From NCBI GenBank assembly GCA_035289185.1, contig DATDXT010000033.1, positions 1 to 30,416 on the forward strand: a DNA stretch of 30,416 nt. The letters are read 5' to 3'. This document shows, piece by piece, positions 2,629-22,958 of this stretch. The translations under genes were made by a program, and so were the position numbers. The stretch is from an archaeon. Lineage in GTDB: Archaea; Aenigmatarchaeota; Aenigmatarchaeia; CG10238-14; SCSR01. The notes beneath the pieces were generated by a model. That model saw only the letters and a program-made list of their open reading frames with translations, did not search any database and was not told the origin of the DNA. Each line of letters opens with the position of its first letter. The stretch's first letter is position 1.

Positions 2629-3369
2629 ATGACAAATCCCATACAACTTAACATTAAAAAAGCATTGGCAGATAGGCTGGCAGAGTATCTTTTTGAAGAG
2701 GTGACGACAAATCCAAATTTCGAAGCATTTAAAATGTATTTTTTGGAAGATATCGATAATTTTTACAAGACTAAATCAAACAAATCTTCAGGTTTGTCAA
2801 TATCGTACCAATTTTTGGACGGCTACGATCAAAATACAGACGACATAAAAAAAGCAGTCGATGTTTTTAAAAACGTCACTTCTTATTTGTCAAGAATGCA
2901 GTATTTTTCCCACGATTCTATAAGAAAATCATACAGAAAACAATTGGAAACTTTCAAGGAGTTCAATATAGGCAAAACTCATATTGATAATTACATAAAA
3001 ATTTACGAACAGATTTTTGATGTTGCTAAGACTAAAGACAGAATCATCGAATTTTTAGTAAAAGAGGCAAATGCCTATGGAAATTGGGAAAAAGTAATAT
3101 TGAAAGAAAATAGATACAGAATAATAAGAAATTTTTTCCCAACAGAAAAAAACTATGTTAAATTCGTCAAAAAAGAAATTGTTGCAAAAGAACAATTGTC
3201 AAAGTGCATAAGAAGTATAATGATGTTCCATGAAAACAACAAGCCATCCGAAAGAACTATCTACAGTTTAATAATTGAAGAAGATATGGCATCCTTGTCC
3301 AAAAAACTTAGGACAGTCCAATTGCAGAGAGAAGTCGCAGAAATTTATGGAAATCTGGTGTCACCATAA
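2629..3369 (+). CDS. Hypothetical protein (orphan, no recognisable motif)
   Basis: The ORF-track ORF 2605..3369 begins at TTG. The first in-frame ATG is at 2629. The gene is visibly more A/T-rich than its flanking genes and is convergent with rpoD, with only 4 nt between the two stops. Confidence 0.55.
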   Translation: MTNPIQLNIKKALADRLAEYLFEEVTTNPNFEAFKMYFLEDIDNFYKTKSNKSSGLSISYQFLDGYDQNTDDIKKAVDVFKNVTSYLSRMQYFSHDSIRKSYRKQLETFKEFNIGKTHIDNYIKIYEQIFDVAKTKDRIIEFLVKEANAYGNWEKVILKENRYRIIRNFFPTEKNYVKFVKKEIVAKEQLSKCIRSIMMFHENNKPSERTIYSLIIEEDMASLSKKLRTVQLQREVAEIYGNLVSP

Positions 3370-3373
3370 CAAT

Positions 3374-4159
3374 TCAAACCTTATTCAAAGATTTAGAGAA
3401 ACCATCTAGCTTCCCATCTATCACATCAAGCGCATCTTTAACAATCTCATGAGATTCAAGACTAGAAGCACTTTCAACATTGAAAATAAAACTCTCATGT
3501 ACAGGCTTCACCTGTATCTTTCCGTCGCTTACATCGACACATTTCATGCAAAGTATACAGTTCAAAGGTCTGTTCACAGCAACCTTGTCGCCTTTCAGAT
3601 CAAATACATTAACAGGACAGCTATCTACATGTTCCTTCTTCCCATGCAGATCCTTATCCACAGTTATTTCGGCTTTATTCCTATATCCAACAACAGCTCC
3701 CTGCCATTTGGCATGCTTCTTTCCTATACCAAGTTTTGCAACTGCAGTAAATTCTATCTCTTCACCTGTGTTGAACATCTCTGTTATCGGTATGTTGTCA
3801 AAAACAGGCTTTACGTCCTTGTCAGTCGTCTTTATGTCTCCAGAATAGACTATGCCAGGACCTTTCTTCTTCAAAATCAATTCCACTTGACAATTGCTGC
3901 ATCCTTTTCCATCACATTTGCATTCCTCAGGAAGATTGTAACTCTTCTCATCGAAAGTAAGAGGTATCTGTCCAAGTCGGTTTGCTATTATGTCATCGTT
4001 CAATGAAGAGCCGTTCTTTTTGAATTCGACTATATCTATTGCCATGGTCTTGACTTCAGAAATCATGATCCTTCTCAAAGCAGAGACCAGCGAGACTGGA
4101 GCATCTTCCACCAAAAAGCTCATGTCTTCCTTGTTTTTATGCAATATTTTCAATTCCAT
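3374..4159 (-). CDS. rpoD: DNA-directed RNA polymerase subunit D (Rpo3) with a Cys-rich Fe-S type domain
   Basis: 261 aa. N-terminus LVSALRRIMISEV, typical of Rpo3/RpoD. Cys clusters CKCDGKGCSNC and SCPVNVF...NCILCMKC. The ATG lies 3 nt after the rpoA'' stop (TGATAAATG). Confidence 0.9.
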   Translation of the reverse strand: MELKILHKNKEDMSFLVEDAPVSLVSALRRIMISEVKTMAIDIVEFKKNGSSLNDDIIANRLGQIPLTFDEKSYNLPEECKCDGKGCSNCQVELILKKKGPGIVYSGDIKTTDKDVKPVFDNIPITEMFNTGEEIEFTAVAKLGIGKKHAKWQGAVVGYRNKAEITVDKDLHGKKEHVDSCPVNVFDLKGDKVAVNRPLNCILCMKCVDVSDGKIQVKPVHESFIFNVESASSLESHEIVKDALDVIDGKLDGFSKSLNKV

Positions 4160-5323: not shown

Positions 5324-7787
5324 CTACTCCACCTCTTTCTACTTTGGACGGATCTATCCCATCTCCGCCTGGGAAAAATTGCACTATGTTGTTTGAACTA
5401 TCCCTTACTGTACCATCGTATTCTACTTTCAAATCCTGCAATGCGCCTACAAGCCTTCTTTCCATGTAACCGGAATGTCTTGTCTTGAGAGACTTGTCCA
5501 TCAAGGATTCTCTTGAGTTGATTGCATCAAAAAAGAACTCGAAAGGCATAAGCCCATTCACGAAACCTCTTCCTACAAAACCACCTGTCTCCAAAGTCAC
5601 ATCTCCTTTTCTGAAATGAGGAAATACTCTTTGATAGTATCCTTTTTCTATCCTTTCGCCCATTATCATTTCCTGTCCGACCATTGCTGCAGTCTGTACT
5701 ATGTTGACTACATCTCCTCTTGCACCGCTTACAGCCATCTGCAACGTAGGATTGTCTTTCATATGTTTGGTGATGACGTCTCCAACCTCATTCAATGCTT
5801 TGTTGGCTCTTCTCTTGATCAATGTCTCTACACTTTCTTTCGGTGTCCTTCCCACCAAAATTTTCAATTCATTCTTCTTGTATTGCCTTAGCAAATCATC
5901 AGTCTCTGATTTAACCTGTACCAAGATATCTCTTACTTTTCTTTCTCCGCTCTCATCCAATGACTGATCTGATATGCTTATTGAAAATCCATGTTTCATC
6001 AAGAAGCTGAGAGAAAGCTTTGAAAGCTTGTTCAAAAATTCTATGACATATGCACTGCCGAACTGGTCGCCCATCTTGCTCAATATCTTTCCACTCTCTG
6101 CACCAACTGCGGCTTTATCAATATATCCTTCCTTTAACATACCATCTTCTATTACAACTTTTTCACCGGACTTGGCTCTGAATTCTATGAACAGTCCTTT
6201 AGGCAGGAAAAGACTCAATATCTCCTTTCCATTCATTTTGTTCTTGTCAGGTATCTCTATGTTCTGGTCAGCCGATCTTATCAGCTGTATGAAATCCTTC
6301 CTTTCCAATTCAGGATTGTACTTGGTCAAAAGATAAAGACCAGTTACATAATCTTGTCTCAATCCAATAATAGGACCGGAAAATCTGGGACTTCTCAAAT
6401 TCTTTTCTACAGACATCAAGTTCTCAGCTTCGACAATCGCTTCCTCTAATTGTGGTATATGCAAGTTCATCTCATCCCCGTCGAAATCTGCGTTATAAGG
6501 AACAGTGACTATAGGGTTCAATCTCAATGTCCTGTGGTCCAAAACCTTTACTCTGTGTGCCATTATACTCATCCTGTGCAATGATGGTTGGCGATTGAAG
6601 AAAGATATATCTCCATTGATCAAATGCCTTTCAACAATATATCCGGGAGATAATTCTTTTGTCAATTCCTTACCATTTTCAGCAGTTACCTTTTTCTTCC
6701 TAGCATCAGGTCTTATGATGTAGTTTGCACCAGGCCATACTTCAGGTCCACGCTCTACAAACTTCTTCACAGTTTCCAGATTTTCTGATGTTATCCTGAT
6801 AGGAACAGTCAATTCTTTTGCTATGACCATAGGCACTCCTACTTCATCTATGTCTATGAATGGGTCTGGACTGATTACACTTCTTGCACAAAAATTCACG
6901 CGCTTGCCAGCAAGGTTTCCCCTGAACCTGCCTTCCTTCGTCTTCAATCTCTGCGATAATGTTTTCAATATTCTTCTTGATCTGTGTCTTGCAGGAGGCA
7001 CGCCTGTAAGTTCATTGTCGAAATAAGTAGAAACGTGATATTGTACAAGCTCCCATAGGTCAACAAGTATGAAATCCGGCGCTCCCAATTCTATGTTCTC
7101 CCTCAACCTCTCATTTATTCTTACAATGTCTACAAGCTTGTGAGTCAAATCATCTTCAGACCTTTCTCCTGTCTCCAAAGTAATCGACGGTCTGACAGAA
7201 ACTGGAGGCACAGGGAACAATGTCAGGACAAGCCATTCTGGCCTGAAGTTCCTGAATCCCATTAATTTGAAATCTGCATCTGTGACCTTCTCCAACTTTT
7301 CCCTTATCTGCACAGCGCTCAATATCTCGCTGCCGTCTGCTATGCTGTAAGGCTTTATGAACTTCAACTTCCCTTGTTCGGCCTTGCAGTAGGGGCATTT
7401 CTTTTTGACAGCTTTTATCAGATCCTTCAAGCTGGTCTTCTTTTCTTTTGCCTTGTCCAATTCTTTTTCATCTATCATTATCCTGCTGCACTTTTTGCAT
7501 GTGACTTTCAAGATAGAGAAAATAATCTTTGCATAAAGAACATGTATGATAGGTTTTGTCAATTCTATATATCCAAAGTGTCCGTTGCAGTCACCGATAG
7601 TTCCACCACAAGTCCTGCATCTTATTCCAGGATCGACGACTCCCATTCTTGGATCCATTATGCCACCTTCTATAGGATAGCCTTCCTCATCATAAAGATC
7701 AGTCTTAGTAATCTTTGCCGCAGCCATCTTCTTTACCATTTCTGGATTTACTATTGTGAATTCTATCGAGTTAACTAGCATAATCAT
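5289..7787 (-). CDS. rpoA1: DNA-directed RNA polymerase subunit A'
   Basis: Contains the catalytic [10 protein letters not shown] motif and N-terminal zinc-finger cysteines (CRTCGG..C..H, CKKCSR). The ORF track starts at 7829. I prefer the ATG at 7787, which shares its A with the rpoB' TGA stop (TGATG). Confidence 0.93.
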
Positions 7788-17664: not shown

Positions 17665-18969
17665 TTGGAGATATGTATAGTCAATTACGTGGATAAATCT
17701 ACATTGGAAACACTTGAGACAAAACTTCTTCTAGACAACGAAACCCGTGATGTATATGCCGCTCATAAAAGTGCGATAGAACTTTACATAGAAAACGAGA
17801 ATGACTACAGCCTTAAAGATCGTGTAAAGACACTGAAAGAAATAAAACTTCCAAACGACAAGCTTGACAGGATATATGAGAAGTACGGTCATACAGAGGA
17901 ATCTGCAGATATAGACGGATTAATAAGATACACCATAGGCGATGTGTTCGATGAACTTATCCAGGATGCCAAGAAAGCGGCTTTTGAGGAAGTCGACAAA
18001 AAGATAGTTGATGAACTATTATCCGACATAAAGGAAAAAGCAAGCTGCAGAAGAAGCATGTCCATCAGGGAAATTTTCTACGGTTTTAGGCACAACTTTT
18101 ACAAGGCTGGATATCTGAAAGATGTATACGATGGCATGCTATGCAAGGTAAATTACAATCTGTTGGGCAAGCATGAATACAGGGACATGAGAGTTTTGAT
18201 CAGGAGAAAGACTCCTATGTCCAAAAAAGTAGATGTGATTGCAATGTATGATGTCAAAAGAGATGCTGGAGATATAGTTCAGGGAATGACTTTCCTTGAA
18301 GACGTCTATGAAAATGAGATAAAAAAAGTAGTCCCAAACCCATCCAAACATTACGGAAAACCAAGATGGCTTACTAAAGGAGACATTACATTCTTTGCAA
18401 CTGTGGCTGCTTCTTATGCTATAACATCTGTCTTTCCTGGTATAGAAGGGATGCTTCATGATGGAGGGCCAATAAGGTTCCTGGGATATACATTAAATGC
18501 TGTTGGAATAGCTCCTGTCGCATTGGAAAAAGTAGGTGCAATCTATGTCTTGAAGAAAATAATCGGCAGACGTACAAGAGGATACATGAATAAGAGAACT
18601 CTTAATACAATAGCCAGAGGTTATGATATAGACAATTTTGGCCTTCTGGCAAACAAAGTTACGAAACAGCAATCCATAAGAGCACATCTTTGTTATGCGA
18701 CTATATGGCTATACCACGATGTTGATAAAAATACACTGTATGAAAGATTGAAAAGATATAACATTGAGAAAGACGAGATAGACGATTTTTTGGACATATT
18801 CGAAAATCATATTAGGATAGTGGAGATCGAGAATGACAAGTATACTCCAAACAAGATGTTGATAGACATACCTATATCCAAGATCTCAAAAATTGGCGTG
18901 AGCGAAAAAGTTAAAGTAATCAGCAATAGAGTAGACAGTCTTGAAAACGATTATCCTTTAAGTATTTAA
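17665..18969 (+). CDS. Hypothetical protein with a central pair of hydrophobic helices
   Basis: 434 aa. TTG start preceded by GAGGGT 8 nt upstream, and no early in-frame ATG. Hydrophobic stretches ITFFATVAASYAITSVFPGI and FLGYTLNAVGIAPVALEKVGAIYVL. No family motif recognised. Confidence 0.6.
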   Translation: MEICIVNYVDKSTLETLETKLLLDNETRDVYAAHKSAIELYIENENDYSLKDRVKTLKEIKLPNDKLDRIYEKYGHTEESADIDGLIRYTIGDVFDELIQDAKKAAFEEVDKKIVDELLSDIKEKASCRRSMSIREIFYGFRHNFYKAGYLKDVYDGMLCKVNYNLLGKHEYRDMRVLIRRKTPMSKKVDVIAMYDVKRDAGDIVQGMTFLEDVYENEIKKVVPNPSKHYGKPRWLTKGDITFFATVAASYAITSVFPGIEGMLHDGGPIRFLGYTLNAVGIAPVALEKVGAIYVLKKIIGRRTRGYMNKRTLNTIARGYDIDNFGLLANKVTKQQSIRAHLCYATIWLYHDVDKNTLYERLKRYNIEKDEIDDFLDIFENHIRIVEIENDKYTPNKMLIDIPISKISKIGVSEKVKVISNRVDSLENDYPLSI

Positions 18970-19391
18970 GCCGAAACTGGTTGTTTGTAGTAGTAAACAT
19001 TAGGAGGAGATCCTTCTGCCACCCCTGCGTTTTTAAAAGCGTTCCTGCCTTCATTCATCTTTAGCATGTATTTGTCAACCAAAAAGCGAAAATGATATCC
19101 GTCCTTGTTATATTCGACCCAAGCATCACCCTTGTTTGGTCCTCTGACTTTCATCACATATGGTCTTTTGCCATCGTGGTGCAATTTTATGTATATGCCA
19201 TTTTGATAAAGCTTTGCTGCTTCGTCTCTGTAATGCTCAAAATTTATACCTTCAAATTCTTTGATCATCTCTGGTGTGAACTCTGTATATAGTTCAGTGG
19301 TTAATTCTTTCATTGCAAACATCCGTAGACGGTACCTCAAAGTAGTCCGTTTGTCACTTAGGATACCTATAATATAATTGGTTTTCCCCAT
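18966..19391 (-). CDS. Hypothetical protein
   Basis: 141 aa with ATG at 19391. Its stop overlaps the stop of the convergent 434-aa gene (shared TTTAA at 18965-18969). No motif recognised. Confidence 0.5.
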   Translation of the reverse strand: MGKTNYIIGILSDKRTTLRYRLRMFAMKELTTELYTEFTPEMIKEFEGINFEHYRDEAAKLYQNGIYIKLHHDGKRPYVMKVRGPNKGDAWVEYNKDGYHFRFLVDKYMLKMNEGRNAFKNAGVAEGSPPNVYYYKQPVSA

Positions 19392-19549
19392 ATTTAAACA
19401 TAACTATTGCAATATCTATGTTCTCCCTAATCCTAATCATTGTAATCTTCCGACATATTTCCTAATTGTTCGACACTTCATACAATTATAGGAAAGTTCA
19501 TAGAAAAATGTTGTGTTTTTATTTGTTTGCAGACCAACAGATATTAGTT

Positions 19550-20890
19550 ATGGTATTGGAAGACCTTGGAGGAGGATTGAAAGCAGCTTTCAACAGGCTG
19601 GTATCCTCAGTCACAGTGGACAAGTCATTGATAGAGCAGACAGTCTCAGACATAAGAAGGGCTTTAATTCAATCAGATGTAAATCTCCAGCTTGCAAATG
19701 ATATTGCAGACAAAATAAAGAAAAGATCGATGGAGGAAAAGACACCTTCTGGCATGAGCAAGCGTGAACAAGTAGTAAAGATAGTATACGAAGAGCTCGT
19801 GAACATGCTTGGAAAGAAGTTCCAGCCATTGAAGCTTGACAAGAAACCATCCATCATACTTATGGCAGGCTTGCTTGGAGCAGGAAAGACCACAAGCACG
19901 GCCAAACTGGCAAGATACATACAGAAGCAGGGAAGGAATGTCGGAATCATAGGAGCAGACGTCTACAGACCAGCGGCTTTAGCGCAATTGGAACAGTTAG
20001 CAAAGCAGATCAACGTCCCAGTGTACGGTGAAAAGGGAAATAAGAATGCTGTGAAGATTGTAGAGAACGGGATGAAAGAGTTTGCGAAGAAAGATGTCAT
20101 CATTATCGATACAGCAGGCAGGTACAAGCAGTCAGAAGAGTTGATGAAGGAGATAAGGCAGATAGGCGAAAAGGTCAAGCCGGACGAGACCATACTCGTC
20201 ATCGATGCCACTATAGGACAGCAGGCCAAACAACAGGCTGAAGCATTCCACAAGGCAGTTCCGATTGGCAGCGTGATGATAACAAAGATGGATGGTACTT
20301 CAAAAGGCGGAGGCGCGTTGAGCGCTTGCAGTGTCACTGGAGCTAATGTCAAGTTCATAGGAATGGGAGAGAAGATAGACAGCCTTGAATTGTACGATCC
20401 TGACAGGTTTGTTTCCAGGATGTTAGGTTTGGGTGATTTGCAGACATTGCTGGAGAAGGTGAAGGAGACAGGAGTCAGCAAAGAATCAATGGAAAAGATG
20501 ATGGAAGGAAAATTCACATTGCAGGACTTCATAGAACAGATAGAGAATGTAAGCAAGGTAGGATCTTTATCGCAGATAGCAGGAATGATACCTGGGTTTG
20601 GCAGCGTGAAACTGCCTAAGGAAGCATTGGAGAAGCAGGAAAGAAAGATGAAGATATGGAAGTTCATAATCCAGAGCATGACAAAGAAGGAGAGAGAGGA
20701 TCCAGCGCTTGTTGATGCAGCTAGAATCAAGAGGATAGCAAAAGGTTCTGGCAGGCAGGAGATGGAAGTAAGGGAATTATTGAACCAGTACAGTTCAATG
20801 AAGAAGATGATGAAGGGACTTGGCGGAGTAAGAGGAATGGATAGGGGTCAGATGAAGGAATTGGCCAAGCAAATGGGATTGAAGTTTTGA
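19550..20890 (+). CDS. srp54: Signal recognition particle protein SRP54
   Basis: MVLEDLGGGLKAAFNRL..., GLLGAGKTTSTAKLA, DTAGR, TKMDGTSKGGGALS, and a Met-rich M domain. The ORF-track start at 19466 is a TTG, and the homologous N-terminus begins at the ATG at 19550. Confidence 0.95.
   Translation: MVLEDLGGGLKAAFNRLVSSVTVDKSLIEQTVSDIRRALIQSDVNLQLANDIADKIKKRSMEEKTPSGMSKREQVVKIVYEELVNMLGKKFQPLKLDKKPSIILMAGLLGAGKTTSTAKLARYIQKQGRNVGIIGADVYRPAALAQLEQLAKQINVPVYGEKGNKNAVKIVENGMKEFAKKDVIIIDTAGRYKQSEELMKEIRQIGEKVKPDETILVIDATIGQQAKQQAEAFHKAVPIGSVMITKMDGTSKGGGALSACSVTGANVKFIGMGEKIDSLELYDPDRFVSRMLGLGDLQTLLEKVKETGVSKESMEKMMEGKFTLQDFIEQIENVSKVGSLSQIAGMIPGFGSVKLPKEALEKQERKMKIWKFIIQSMTKKEREDPALVDAARIKRIAKGSGRQEMEVRELLNQYSSMKKMMKGLGGVRGMDRGQMKELAKQMGLKF
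20863..20890 (+). repeat. Direct repeat copy 1: the functional 3' end of srp54 (AKQMGLKF*)
   Basis: GGCCAAGCAAATGGGATTGAAGTTTTGA recurs at 21960-21987 with 23/28 identity by my manual alignment. Both copies encode AKQMGLKF-stop. Confidence 0.8.
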
Positions 20891-20897
20891 GTTATCA

Positions 20898-20913
20898 TGT
20901 AACACGTGTTACA
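20898..20913. promoter_or_regulatory. Perfect 16-bp palindrome TGTAACACGTGTTACA
   Basis: Read directly from the sequence, 8 nt after the srp54 stop. CACGTG core. Confidence 0.6.
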
Positions 20914-20921
20914 CAGCCAAA

Positions 20922-20968
20922 TTTTGTAGTCACCTATATACAAAAAGTTTATATATTGTAGTCACCTA
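20922..20968 (+). repeat. Two direct copies of TTGTAGTCACCTA flanking the fic TATA box
   Basis: TTGTAGTCACCTA occurs at 20924-20936 and 20956-20968, 32 bp apart. TTTATATA (20948-20955) lies between them. The second copy sits between the TATA box and the ATG. Confidence 0.8.
20948..20955 (+). promoter_or_regulatory. Putative TATA box for fic
   Basis: TTTATATA lies 22 nt upstream of the ATG at 20978 (leaderless geometry). Confidence 0.45.
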
Positions 20969-20977
20969 ATACTTATT

Positions 20978-21928
20978 ATGCACGTGGAAATAAGGAACGT
21001 TGGCAGAAAGAAAAAATATTACCTTGCACACTCATTCAGGCATGATGGGAAGGTCAAAAAGTTCAGATTTTATCTTGGAACTGATTTGACAAAAACAGAA
21101 TTAAACGACAAAATAAAACACGCAAAGGAAATTTTGGATGAGAGGATAAAAGCATATGGAAAAGTAGGAGACCCGTTCTATACAGTTATTACATCCAAAG
21201 AATTGGAATATGTAAAACATCTGGAAGATAAATACAGGATGGAAGAAATAAAAGTTTTGCACCTGTCTGAAAAAAACTGGGCCGAATTTACAAAAGCATT
21301 CACATACGATACCAATGCCATAGAGGGATCCACCGTGACTTTTACAGAAGTCTCTGACATATTGGAAAAAAAAGAATGGCCTAAAGAAAAGCAAAAATGG
21401 GAGATATCTGAAACATATGGAGTTGCGGAAGCCGTTGATTTCATAAGAAATTCTAGGGAAGACATCTCTTTAAAATTGATAAAAGAACTCCACAGGATTG
21501 TGTTCAAGAATTCCAAGGATTTTGCAGGCAAATTCAGGAAGAATGGAGAGGAGGTCGCTGTAGTGGACGCCTTTGGCAATATAAAACATAGAGGAGCCCC
21601 ATCATCGCAGATTGTCAGGCTTCTTAATGAATTGATACGTTGGTATGGCAAAAACAACCGGAAATATCCTGCATTGGTGTTGGCTGCTGTGGTACACAAT
21701 CATTTTGAAACTATACATCCATTCAAGGACGGAAATGGGAGAGTCGGAAGGCTTTTGTTGAACAACATATTGTTGAAGCACGGTTTGCCGCCCGTCAACA
21801 TAGAGCTGAAAAGCAGGCAGGAATACTACAGGGCACTGCAGGAATATCAAAAAATGAGGAATCTTCGACCAATGATAGAGCTTATATTGAGAGAATACAG
21901 GAGATTTATGAAAAGCCTGAACAGGTGA
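20978..21928 (+). CDS. fic: Fic-domain protein (AMPylator-type), class II with an N-terminal inhibitory helix
   Basis: 316 aa. Canonical Fic motif HPFKDGNGRVGR (HxFx[D/E]GNGRxxR). Upstream inhibitory motif TNAIEG ([S/T]xxxE[G/N]). Confidence 0.92.
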   Translation: MHVEIRNVGRKKKYYLAHSFRHDGKVKKFRFYLGTDLTKTELNDKIKHAKEILDERIKAYGKVGDPFYTVITSKELEYVKHLEDKYRMEEIKVLHLSEKNWAEFTKAFTYDTNAIEGSTVTFTEVSDILEKKEWPKEKQKWEISETYGVAEAVDFIRNSREDISLKLIKELHRIVFKNSKDFAGKFRKNGEEVAVVDAFGNIKHRGAPSSQIVRLLNELIRWYGKNNRKYPALVLAAVVHNHFETIHPFKDGNGRVGRLLLNNILLKHGLPPVNIELKSRQEYYRALQEYQKMRNLRPMIELILREYRRFMKSLNR

Positions 21929-21954
21929 CTACATTTCTATGTTTTGTAGTCACC
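21924..21954. repeat. Perfect 10-bp inverted repeat GGTGACTACA-N11-TGTAGTCACC (hairpin) overlapping the fic stop codon
   Basis: Read directly from the sequence. The left arm contains the fic TGA (21926-21928). The right arm is the same TTTTGTAGTCACC found at 20922-20934. Confidence 0.8.
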
Positions 21955-21959
21955 CAGTC

Positions 21960-21987
21960 GGCCAAGCAGATGGGATTGAAATTCTAG
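21960..21987 (+). pseudogene. Displaced remnant of an srp54 3' end (AKQMGLKF*)
   Basis: GGCCAAGCAGATGGGATTGAAATTCTAG. It differs from 20863-20890 only at CAA/CAG, AAG/AAA, TTT/TTC and TGA/TAG, which are all synonymous or stop-to-stop. Confidence 0.7.
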
Positions 21988-21995
21988 AAATCCAT

Positions 21996-22958
21996 CTATT
22001 TTAGATAGTTGTAAATGGTTCTAGATACATTGCTGGCTGTTTCACTGAAATCTTTTTTTGTTGTCCCAGAACTCATTATACATAACATATAAGGTTTGTT
22101 TGGTGCATAGATTATTCCACAATCATGATAGCTTTTTGTAGGACCCCAATCGCCTATCTTATGAGCCACTTTTATATTGTCTGGCAAACCAGATACTATT
22201 CCGTAATCAAATTTTGTATCTGAAAGCAGAGAAAGTATAAAGTTAGAAAATGTTCTTCTAAGATAGGCAGAATAGTATAAAGCGCGTAAAATGTTCATAT
22301 AATTTTTTGGAGTGATTGCAGTCGAACTTATATCAGGCGAAAATGAGGGTGGAGGAAGTCCCATTGCAATATAAGCTTCTGCCAGATCGCCATATGTCAG
22401 TTGTCTGACAAGTACATTGTATGCTGTGTTATCAGATTCGTTTATAACAAAGTTCAGAGCAGATTTCACATCAATGTCATATCCATATCCCTTAGAAGCT
22501 AGACTGCCAAATGTAAGATTAGGTTCTATATCAGCCTCGGAAATTGTCAATTTTGTTTCCATAGACAGGTAGCCATCCTCTAATTTTTTTACTATAGCGA
22601 TCACTGCTGGAGTTTTAAGTAGGCTTGCTGGTACGAACATATCCCTTTCATTAATTCCAAACCATGCTCCTGTTATAAGGTCTTCAAAATAAATACCATA
22701 ATGGCCTTTTGACGAGTTTGTTATTTTCTCAACTTCTGTTTTTAATGGTGTATACGAAACTGTAAGGTATTGTTGTCCCCGAAGAAAATTATTCACTTCC
22801 ATACTTGCTGTCTGAGGATCAATGAGTGCATAATTATCAGAACGGTCTCTTTCCCAAGAGTTGCTTATGATGTAAACTATGAGCGAAATATTTATAACAA
22901 CCATTATAGAAAACCAAAACTTGAGAGATTTCAAATCTATTTCAATTTTAGACACCAT
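21996..22958 (-). CDS. Class-A beta-lactamase-like / penicillin-binding-fold serine hydrolase with an N-terminal membrane anchor
   Basis: SxxK (ASLLK), SDN (ESDNTAYN) and KTG-like (HKIGD) motifs in the right order and spacing. N-terminal TM segment FWFSIMVVINISLIVYIISN. The ORF-track start at 22967 is TTG, and the ATG at 22958 is preferred. Confidence 0.72.
   Translation of the reverse strand: MVSKIEIDLKSLKFWFSIMVVINISLIVYIISNSWERDRSDNYALIDPQTASMEVNNFLRGQQYLTVSYTPLKTEVEKITNSSKGHYGIYFEDLITGAWFGINERDMFVPASLLKTPAVIAIVKKLEDGYLSMETKLTISEADIEPNLTFGSLASKGYGYDIDVKSALNFVINESDNTAYNVLVRQLTYGDLAEAYIAMGLPPPSFSPDISSTAITPKNYMNILRALYYSAYLRRTFSNFILSLLSDTKFDYGIVSGLPDNIKVAHKIGDWGPTKSYHDCGIIYAPNKPYMLCIMSSGTTKKDFSETASNVSRTIYNYLK

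Follow-up and report, generated by a model that had tools for sequence, protein, structure and literature searches.

A Fic gene between two srp54 3' ends suggests a family of integrase-less cassettes in DPANN archaea

In a 30,416-nucleotide stretch of DNA from a DPANN archaeon (contig DATDXT010000033.1 of assembly GCA_035289185.1; hereafter the window), a single class II Fic gene lies between two copies of the 3' end of the essential gene srp54 that encode the same peptide. The segment apparently belongs to a large and conserved family of DPANN Fic cassettes that carry no integrase, and this family seems to be undescribed: full-text literature searches returned no description of it. The best explanation, in which our confidence and our doubt are about evenly balanced, is that it is a non-autonomous single-gene integrative cassette that entered by reciprocal recombination at the srp54 3' end, with a recombinase supplied in trans. 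Little is known of the mobile DNA of DPANN archaea, whose genomes are tiny.

The 3' end of srp54 is present on both sides of a Fic gene

The last 28 nucleotides of srp54 (GGCCAAGCAAATGGGATTGAAGTTTTGA) recur 1097 bp downstream (GGCCAAGCAGATGGGATTGAAATTCTAG) as a direct repeat in which 23 of 28 positions are identical. The locus is laid out as follows.

19550..20890, + strand: srp54, the target gene, 446 amino acids, whose last 28 nucleotides are the left repeat (Pfam SRP54_N, SRP54 and SRP_SPB; length matches that of the relatives P0002-P0013).
20863..20890, + strand: left direct repeat, resembling the left attachment site (attL) of an integrated element; functional srp54 3' end, AKQMGLKF-TGA (repeat comparison).
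20978..21928, + strand: fic, encoding a 316-amino-acid class II Fic/Fido protein (Pfam Fic, E = 1.7e-21).
21960..21987, + strand: right direct repeat (attR-like); displaced srp54 3' end, AKQMGLKF-TAG, with no open reading frame (ORF) body upstream (repeat comparison).
21996..22958, - strand: convergent gene for a serine hydrolase of the Beta-lactamase2 family, flanking the cassette and outside it (Pfam PF13354, E = 6.6e-39).

The recurrence had been pointed out in a first-pass annotation made from the sequence alone, and it withstands comparison with shuffled DNA. Across 2000 shuffles of the 3 kb downstream, the best match to the srp54 end was 21/28 and 23 was never attained; a 20-nucleotide core pattern of the repeat, allowed up to three mismatches, occurs at two places only in the window (0 expected). 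The longest identical run between the copies is 11 nucleotides. The edges of the repeat are sharp, with flanking identity at background level (8/30 upstream, 6/30 downstream).

Read in frame, both copies give AKQMGLKF followed by a stop codon, the left one closing the reading frame of srp54 itself. They differ by CAA/CAG, AAG/AAA and TTT/TTC, which are three synonymous third-position changes, and by a swap of the stop codon (TGA/TAG). Five random substitutions would preserve peptide and stop with a probability of 6.5e-5, or 4.8e-4 with a transition bias, and the probability that the three changes in sense codons are all synonymous is 0.0035. The first-pass annotation had argued that the decay of a simple duplicate would not leave such a pattern; the codon comparison and these calculations, which make chance improbable (P ~6e-5 to 5e-4), bear this out. 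Because the differences preserve coding, we infer that the two copies had separate evolutionary histories.

The right copy ends at 21987, leaving 8 nucleotides before the stop codon of the convergent hydrolase gene (21996-21998), as annotated. Between the copies, the interior spans 1,069 nucleotides and holds one real gene, fic; the other ORFs are antisense ORFs nested in it. Pfam and ORF checks both agree with the earlier description of the enclosed 1.07 kb as a class II Fic gene with no integrase.

One source gives srp54 a start further upstream (19508-19549), which yields a protein of 460 residues (P0001); the ATG at 19550 is favored because the SRP54 proteins of the relatives are all 446 residues long.

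Fic cassettes recur behind tRNA and protein genes

We found 3,193 database proteins related to the Fic protein of the window at E <= 1e-20. Among the 120 top matches listed, identity to it is 59-70%, nearly all proteins are 310-316 residues long, and the named sources are Aenigmarchaeota or Micrarchaeota. The comparison covered 38 related loci, drawn from metagenomes and assemblies (45-70% Fic identity). Their non-coding architecture, made up of the spacing of motif, TATA box, motif and ATG and of a motif pair after the stop codon (see below), repeats that of the window almost base for base. 

To assess the repeats, the family motif was masked and the upstream flank of each locus was compared with its own downstream flank; all mismatched flank pairs served as controls. 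A score of at least 16 was reached by the own flanks of 8 of 36 distinct loci and by 0.08% of 1260 mismatched pairs; for a score of at least 14, the figures were 10 of 36 loci and 0.7%. Flanking direct repeats of 14-52 nucleotides occur in about ten independent loci, always with a start-to-start period of 1.08-1.22 kb, and the units that they bound always contain Fic alone.

Several of these repeats are 3' portions of tRNA genes, which are typical attachment (att) sites of integrases. The repeat is 43-52 nucleotides long and identical at about 42/43 positions in L061, consists of the end of an intron-containing tRNA plus flank in L063, and comprises the last 12 nucleotides of a tRNA-Asp with 9 nucleotides beyond it in L181. 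In L058/L059, the Fic cassette stands behind another protein gene and is followed by a diverged copy of the 3' end of that gene, which keeps the reading frame and has its stop codon at the homologous position. The second copy in L058 remains similar to the target at the protein level beyond the 52-nucleotide repeat (...FTLESGADFITIEGDVL-stop versus ...HIILESGADFIAIEGDLL-stop); judged by its sequence, L058 is an independent reproduction of the coding-end duplication of the window. Other flanking repeats are non-coding (L068, 16/16 identical; L074, 14/14, and 15/15 in its duplicate contig L076; L082; L176). Cassettes also abut a tRNA gene with no detectable second copy (L056, L060, L066, L086). 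Wherever the target could be identified, in 10/10 independent loci, Fic lies downstream of it and in the same orientation.

The closest Fic relative (L189, 70% identity) sits just after an orphan tRNA 3' fragment, which itself follows a nucleotidyltransferase-type gene pair, and in L188 the Fic gene stands behind a PIN-domain gene with a small upstream ORF, likely a VapBC-type toxin-antitoxin pair. The annotation had also proposed looking for the cassette on viruses; a family profile scan of IMG/VR gave only Fic cores of at most 35% identity that lack the N-terminal domain.

Some further repeats were seen around these cassettes. In L072 (2762-2783) and L078 (1567-1580), the 3' end of a tRNA-Ser is repeated 77 and 129 nucleotides downstream of the tRNA, 0.6-1.4 kb upstream of the Fic cassette; these could be short att-bounded scars. 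Several short repeats containing ACGCCCC occur on both flanks of the Fic cassette of the TGTAGACA subgroup (L074:4700-4815, L076:1300-1365), and one 14-15-nucleotide copy per side is the flanking direct repeat of L074/L076. The target tRNA of L063 (1589-1813), which ARAGORN did not call, apparently has a long intron, with a partial duplicate of its 5' half before it.

No recombinase accompanies the cassettes

The unit in the window contains no integrase or recombinase, fic being the sole gene between the repeats, and the 30-kb window as a whole contains no tRNA gene, integrase or transposase. No recombinase is annotated within 5-10 kb in L176-L192, including L188. Among 85 neighbor ORFs, no integrase family was matched by at least two ORFs; families matched by a single ORF were looked at only among the 25 listed. 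The reported absence of an integrase from the cassette therefore extends to the 30-kb window and to 5-10 kb around the loci examined.

The Fic protein carries an additional N-terminal domain

The catalytic motif HPFKDGNGRVGR (residues 247-258, nucleotides 21716-21751) fits HxFx(D/E)GNGRxxR, and the core H247-P-F-x-D-G-N-G-R-x-G-R258 is invariant across 65 homologues. The inhibitory motif TNAIEG (residues 112-117, nucleotides 21311-21328), invariant in the family, lies upstream of the catalytic motif on the same chain, N-terminal to the core, which places the protein in class II. The protein also has the Fido fold. It is by all these features of sequence and fold a class II Fic, with a predicted activity as an autoinhibited AMP-transferase. 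No small ORF for a separate antitoxin lies in the cassette, and the name toxin, used in the first-pass annotation, is an assumption.

Residues 1-62 add a domain in which a long helix follows an antiparallel sheet of three strands; this domain is not found in the structures of other class II Fic proteins (FICD/HYPE, Bacteroides BT_2513, Clostridium difficile Fic). The gene of the window also differs from theirs in that it makes up a cassette complete in itself, with a 10-bp motif of its own. The same sheet-plus-helix domain occurs at the N-terminus of proteins of 500-580 residues ending in a PEP-utilizers mobile domain, and it heads class II aminoacyl-tRNA synthetase cores and a HAD hydrolase (proteins sharing the domain: P0337, P0344, P0376, P0363, P0353, P0307).

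A 10-bp motif marks the predicted promoter and the end of fic

The motif TGTAGTCACC has four exact occurrences in the window, all in the interior of the cassette. The non-coding features of the interior are the following.

20898..20913, no strand: perfect 16-bp palindrome TGTAACACGTGTTACA, just inside the left end of the cassette, after the srp54 stop (read from the sequence; its single-strand fold is no better than that of shuffles, z = -1.05).
20925..20934, + strand: distal motif TGTAGTCACC, upstream of the promoter, putative operator (in most related loci it starts 50-53 nucleotides before the ATG).
20940..20955, + strand: predicted archaeal-type promoter, with a purine-rich sequence like a transcription factor B recognition element (BRE), ACAAAAAG, then the TATA box TTTATATA, 23 nucleotides before the ATG (read from the sequence).
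20957..20966, + strand: proximal motif TGTAGTCACC, between TATA box and ATG, putative operator (starts 19-22 nucleotides before the ATG in 35/39 loci).
21924..21954, no strand: inverted pair GGTGACTACA-N11-TGTAGTCACC over the fic stop, with the TGA inside the left arm (10-bp stem as a single strand, z = -4.37).

Related loci have a TTTAAATA/TTTATATA box between the two upstream motifs, at the same place as in the window, and in most of them two or three copies of the motif lie at the fic stop codon or shortly beyond it; the spacer of the inverted pair is 11 nucleotides in 8/8 related loci measured by eye. The motif is highly specific, with 90 occurrences at Fic gene ends versus one elsewhere in 226 kb of Fic loci, and with a single occurrence in 531 kb of loci that lack this Fic. 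The half-sites of the inverted pair are 21 bp apart center to center and the promoter pair ~31 bp, spacings that would place all sites on one face of the helix.

Archaeal repressors typically act at sites flanking the TATA box. From its position, the motif is probably an operator that represses Fic expression rather than a mobility site, and its likely binder is the Fic protein's own sheet-plus-helix domain, a candidate DNA-binding domain. The motif is a property of the Fic cargo, since neighboring cassettes of a related array (below) lack TGTAGTCACC.

The 16-bp palindrome could be a srp54 3' structure or a protein-binding site. An 11-nucleotide inverted match (TGTAGTCACCT/AGGTGACTACA) lies 34 nucleotides inside the left repeat and 26 nucleotides inside the right one. 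A scan for sigma-70 promoters and terminators, a model inapplicable to an archaeon, gave nothing.

Cassettes occur in tandem and in an array

In L063, a tRNA is followed by Fic, by the repeat of the tRNA end and then by a second, different Fic-type gene, giving a tandem at one tRNA. The second gene (2964-3576) is more diverged; it shares the N-terminal sheet domain, contains a TNAIEGS motif and is preceded by a TATA box of its own.

A larger arrangement is found in L190, an extended version of L176, where four cassettes and five direct repeat copies occupy 7.3 kb (L190:5346-12722, equal to L176:346-7722). Of these copies, four measure ~95 nucleotides, with 79-82% identity to the reference copy, and the fifth measures 28 nucleotides. 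The cargo consists of a major facilitator superfamily (MFS) transporter with small ORFs, a HEPN-MNT pair, Fic, and three small ORFs. The cassettes next to Fic, with their other cargo and no TGTAGTCACC motif, are nevertheless bounded by the same repeats, and on this comparison mobility appears independent of cargo. No integrase is present in the 21 kb of L190. The repeats do not fold into hairpins (z about 0), and for the idea of attC-like sites Rfam gave nothing relevant.

Two other features of L190 were observed. The first cassette has divergent fluoride riboswitches (Rfam RF01734, 42 and 47 bits) at 6827-6888 on the - strand and 7034-7098 on the + strand, of which one immediately precedes the MFS gene and the other a 133-residue ORF. 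Outside the array, a 774-residue eRF1 gene with an intein (Hint, Intein_splicing, LAGLIDADG_3) lies at 17733-20057 on the - strand.

The genomic setting and the nearest relatives

The window is core chromosome, with genes for RNA polymerase subunits, an Obg-like GTPase, Nop5/fibrillarin, FtsY, SRP54, an RNA methyltransferase, FtsZ and the CCA-adding enzyme. The host is a DPANN archaeon whose nearest SRP54 proteins are labelled Aenigmatarchaeota by their sources. The base composition of the cassette is not clearly distinct from that of its flanks.

No SRP54 in the GTDB representative genomes exceeds 46% identity to that of the window; in the protein collection, the nearest relatives are 77-81% identical. 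Downstream of srp54, these relatives have three different genes (a repeat-like convergent gene, a 203-residue ORF, and ParA/MinD). As for the hydrolase, P0392 represents this same protein with part of its interior deleted, and the nearest real relative (P0393, 52%) sits between FmrO and a peptidase and not beside srp54. The first-pass annotation had taken srp54 directly facing the hydrolase gene as the arrangement before insertion; no such empty site was found among the 77-81% SRP54 relatives or the hydrolase relatives. Its proposal to place the second copy by comparing srp54 C-termini led no further: the srp54 ends of the relatives have diverged too far in their DNA for either copy to be placed in a lineage, and the ending AKQMGLKF belongs to the SRP54 of the window alone among the 60 best database hits, the nearest others being AKQMGMNF.

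Between ftsY and srp54, the window has a 434-residue ORF with no Pfam match (17665-18969, + strand). Relatives with 78% SRP54 identity (L050-L053) have an ORF of equal length at the matching place, which makes this a conserved lineage-specific gene.

Discussion

A cassette that may have entered through srp54

In the reading that we prefer, the srp54 3' end carried by a circular cassette would have recombined once, reciprocally, with the chromosomal srp54 3' end (Campbell-type integration). SRP54 would thereby have kept its exact C-terminus and stop codon, and the displaced end would persist as the right repeat beside the hydrolase gene. The empty junction would be a single srp54 end followed by AAATCCATCTATTTTAG, and the circle junction would read ...TGTAGTCACCCAGTC-[srp54 end]-GTTATCATGTAACACGTG... 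We favor this single-crossover model because it accounts for why the repeats are direct, why the target is intact, why the polarity is constant and why cassettes accrete in tandem. The synonymous-only differences would then have arisen between two srp54 genes, that of the present host and that of a close relative which was the earlier host, the coding-preserving pattern arising because the two ends come from two such lineages. Since AKQMGLKF is unique to the window among the best hits, the previous host would have been closer than the 81% relative. The annotation's comparison of the two copies to an attL/attR pair gains indirect support from this divergence, from its recurrence in L058, from the tRNA-end repeats of L061, L063 and L181, and from the constant 1.08-1.22-kb Fic-only unit.

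The activity would most likely be an unlinked site-specific recombinase, not encoded by the cassette and acting in trans. We prefer such an enzyme because the repeats are short and imperfect and because several are the tRNA 3' ends typical of att sites.

A number of observations weigh against this picture. The cassette is present in all three other contigs of the same strain, and the relatives in the collections examined, none of them closer than those with 77-81% SRP54 identity, showed no empty site, no circular junction and no polymorphism for the presence of the cassette. No candidate recombinase was found in any locus searched. Flanking repeats are detectable in only about a third of the related loci, and those of different loci have no common core, so that a trans-acting site-specific recombinase would need to vary from site to site. 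Finally, in about six loci (L069, L077, L080, L083, L089, L094) the motif set is upstream of fic only and there are no flanking repeats; these look like resident genes.

Alternative origins of the two srp54 ends

A wider possibility, which we entertain but hold to be somewhat less likely than not, is an undescribed integron-like system of DPANN archaea, in which an unlinked recombinase would move many small cassettes (with Fic, HEPN-MNT or other cargo) bounded by repeats resembling gene ends or tRNAs.

A serious rival, although we think it rather unlikely, keeps the same cassette and single-crossover topology and replaces the dedicated recombinase with the general homologous recombination of the host, acting on short homology to conserved gene ends such as those of tRNAs and srp54. 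It is serious because the repeats at different loci (14-52 nucleotides) are unrelated and share no core. The targets are conserved genes, which makes homology available across lineages, and no integrase turned up in the window, in the L190 region or in recurrent families of neighbor ORFs. Such homology would be very short and imperfect, however (23/28 in the window, with 11 nucleotides as the longest run), and several repeats are those tRNA 3' portions that integrases typically use.

The annotation had left two options, a decayed remnant of a larger integrated element and a small cassette mobilized in trans. The second fits better; the first does not hold up well against the same minimal unit at many unrelated sites and the L190 array. 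As a remnant, the segment would be what an internal deletion left of an integrated virus or plasmid, with the att-proximal fic between attL and attR. The att-like repeats and missing integrase of the window taken alone are compatible with this, but independent deletions would not converge on a Fic-only unit of 1.08-1.22 kb at ~10 unrelated sites, and no larger element with this Fic subfamily was found, the IMG/VR cores being distant and without the N-domain. We consider this origin improbable.

Slightly less credible still is a target duplication, in which the 28 nucleotides were copied from the host upon insertion and have diverged since. There is a precedent in integrase-less selfish units with long variable repeats overlapping gene 3' ends (PMC2853133), and the identical or near-identical repeats of L068, L074/L076 and L061 would suit it. 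A non-functional downstream copy should decay randomly, yet all five changes in the window preserve peptide and stop, and the second copy of L058 keeps its stop and its protein similarity beyond the repeat, as the end of a diverged orthologue would.

It is very unlikely that the element is autonomous, with the N-terminal domain of Fic binding the four TGTAGTCACC sites, which would flank the att region in the circular form, and itself promoting or directing integration and excision. The Fic core has the features of a canonical autoinhibited AMP-transferase and none of a nuclease or recombinase, and fold matches are weak and non-specific; the L190 neighbors have the same repeats with other cargo and no motif, and the ~6 loci with upstream motifs only have no flanking repeats. 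Coincidence or an insignificant local duplication beside an ordinary resident fic, for which members between housekeeping genes with no flanking repeats (L080, L083, L089) might speak, is hardly believable in view of the shuffle tests and of repeat-bounded units recurring at independent loci.

What such cassettes would mean

Single-gene, self-regulated cassettes at the 3' ends of tRNA and essential genes, with these ends restored and no recombinase at hand, would represent a route of gene flow without an identified engine. Identifying the recombination activity, whether an unlinked integrase, host recombination or Fic, would explain how accessory genes insert into the core regions of reduced genomes without damage to essential genes; if Fic itself drove the process, it would represent a recombination protein or directionality factor of a new kind. 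For archaeal Fic biology, the family offers a predicted promoter-operator architecture, a candidate DNA-binding domain and a model of autoregulation in the prokaryotic relatives closest to eukaryotic FICD.

Comparison with known mobile systems

Integrase-mediated elements of archaea and bacteria that occupy the 3' ends of tRNA or protein genes share several traits with the Fic cassettes: the flanking repeats hold the 3' end of the target, a replacement end keeps the target intact, tRNA genes are frequent targets, and elements accrete in tandem at one site. Unlike them, the Fic unit has no integrase inside or nearby, is 1.1 kb long with one gene, and has short att-like repeats that vary among members.

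Cis-mobilizable elements (CIMEs), such as those related to ICESt1 in Streptococcus thermophilus, are integrase-less and rely on the recombinase of a helper; they derive by decay from a single helper lineage, whose att site they have in common. Like the Fic cassettes, they are flanked by att sites, have no recombination genes, are proposed to be mobilized in trans and are arranged in tandem with other elements. The Fic cassettes differ in having one conserved cargo module at many unrelated att-like sites and no known helper.

Archaeal integron arrays often lack a nearby integrase, with 6 IntI versus 539 attC sites in 75 genomes (Ghaly et al. 2022, PMC9668308). Integron cassettes and Fic cassettes are both ~1-kb single-gene units without a recombinase of their own, commonly with toxin-antitoxin cargo, an inverted repeat after the ORF, and arrays such as L190. 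In contrast to integron cassettes, the Fic cassette has its own predicted promoter, and its boundaries are target-gene ends, not attC cores. More specifically, the palindrome after the ORF was rejected as an attC site: it is a perfect, Fic-specific 10-bp stem with an 11-nucleotide loop and no R''/L''-L'/R' boxes (read by eye, not with an attC-finding program). The left-boundary GTTATCA does not fit GTTRRRY, and a single cassette with its own predicted BRE/TATA between core genes, with no intI in 30 kb, is not the promoterless ORF in an array near attI/intI that defines an integron cassette. We also rejected a transposon or insertion sequence, as there is no transposase, the 11-nucleotide inverted match does not abut the flanking repeats, and these repeats are 28 nucleotides long and non-identical.

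Restriction-modification (RM) units can be inserted with long target duplications, giving near-identical repeats of more than 30 bp (Furuta, Abe and Kobayashi 2010, PMC2853133). These are likewise selfish or defense-type units with no mobility gene, whose long variable repeats can overlap the 3' end of a neighboring gene. Their repeats are near-identical duplicates of the host target, whereas the two copies around the Fic cassette of the window are 28 nucleotides long and differ in ways that preserve the coding sequence.

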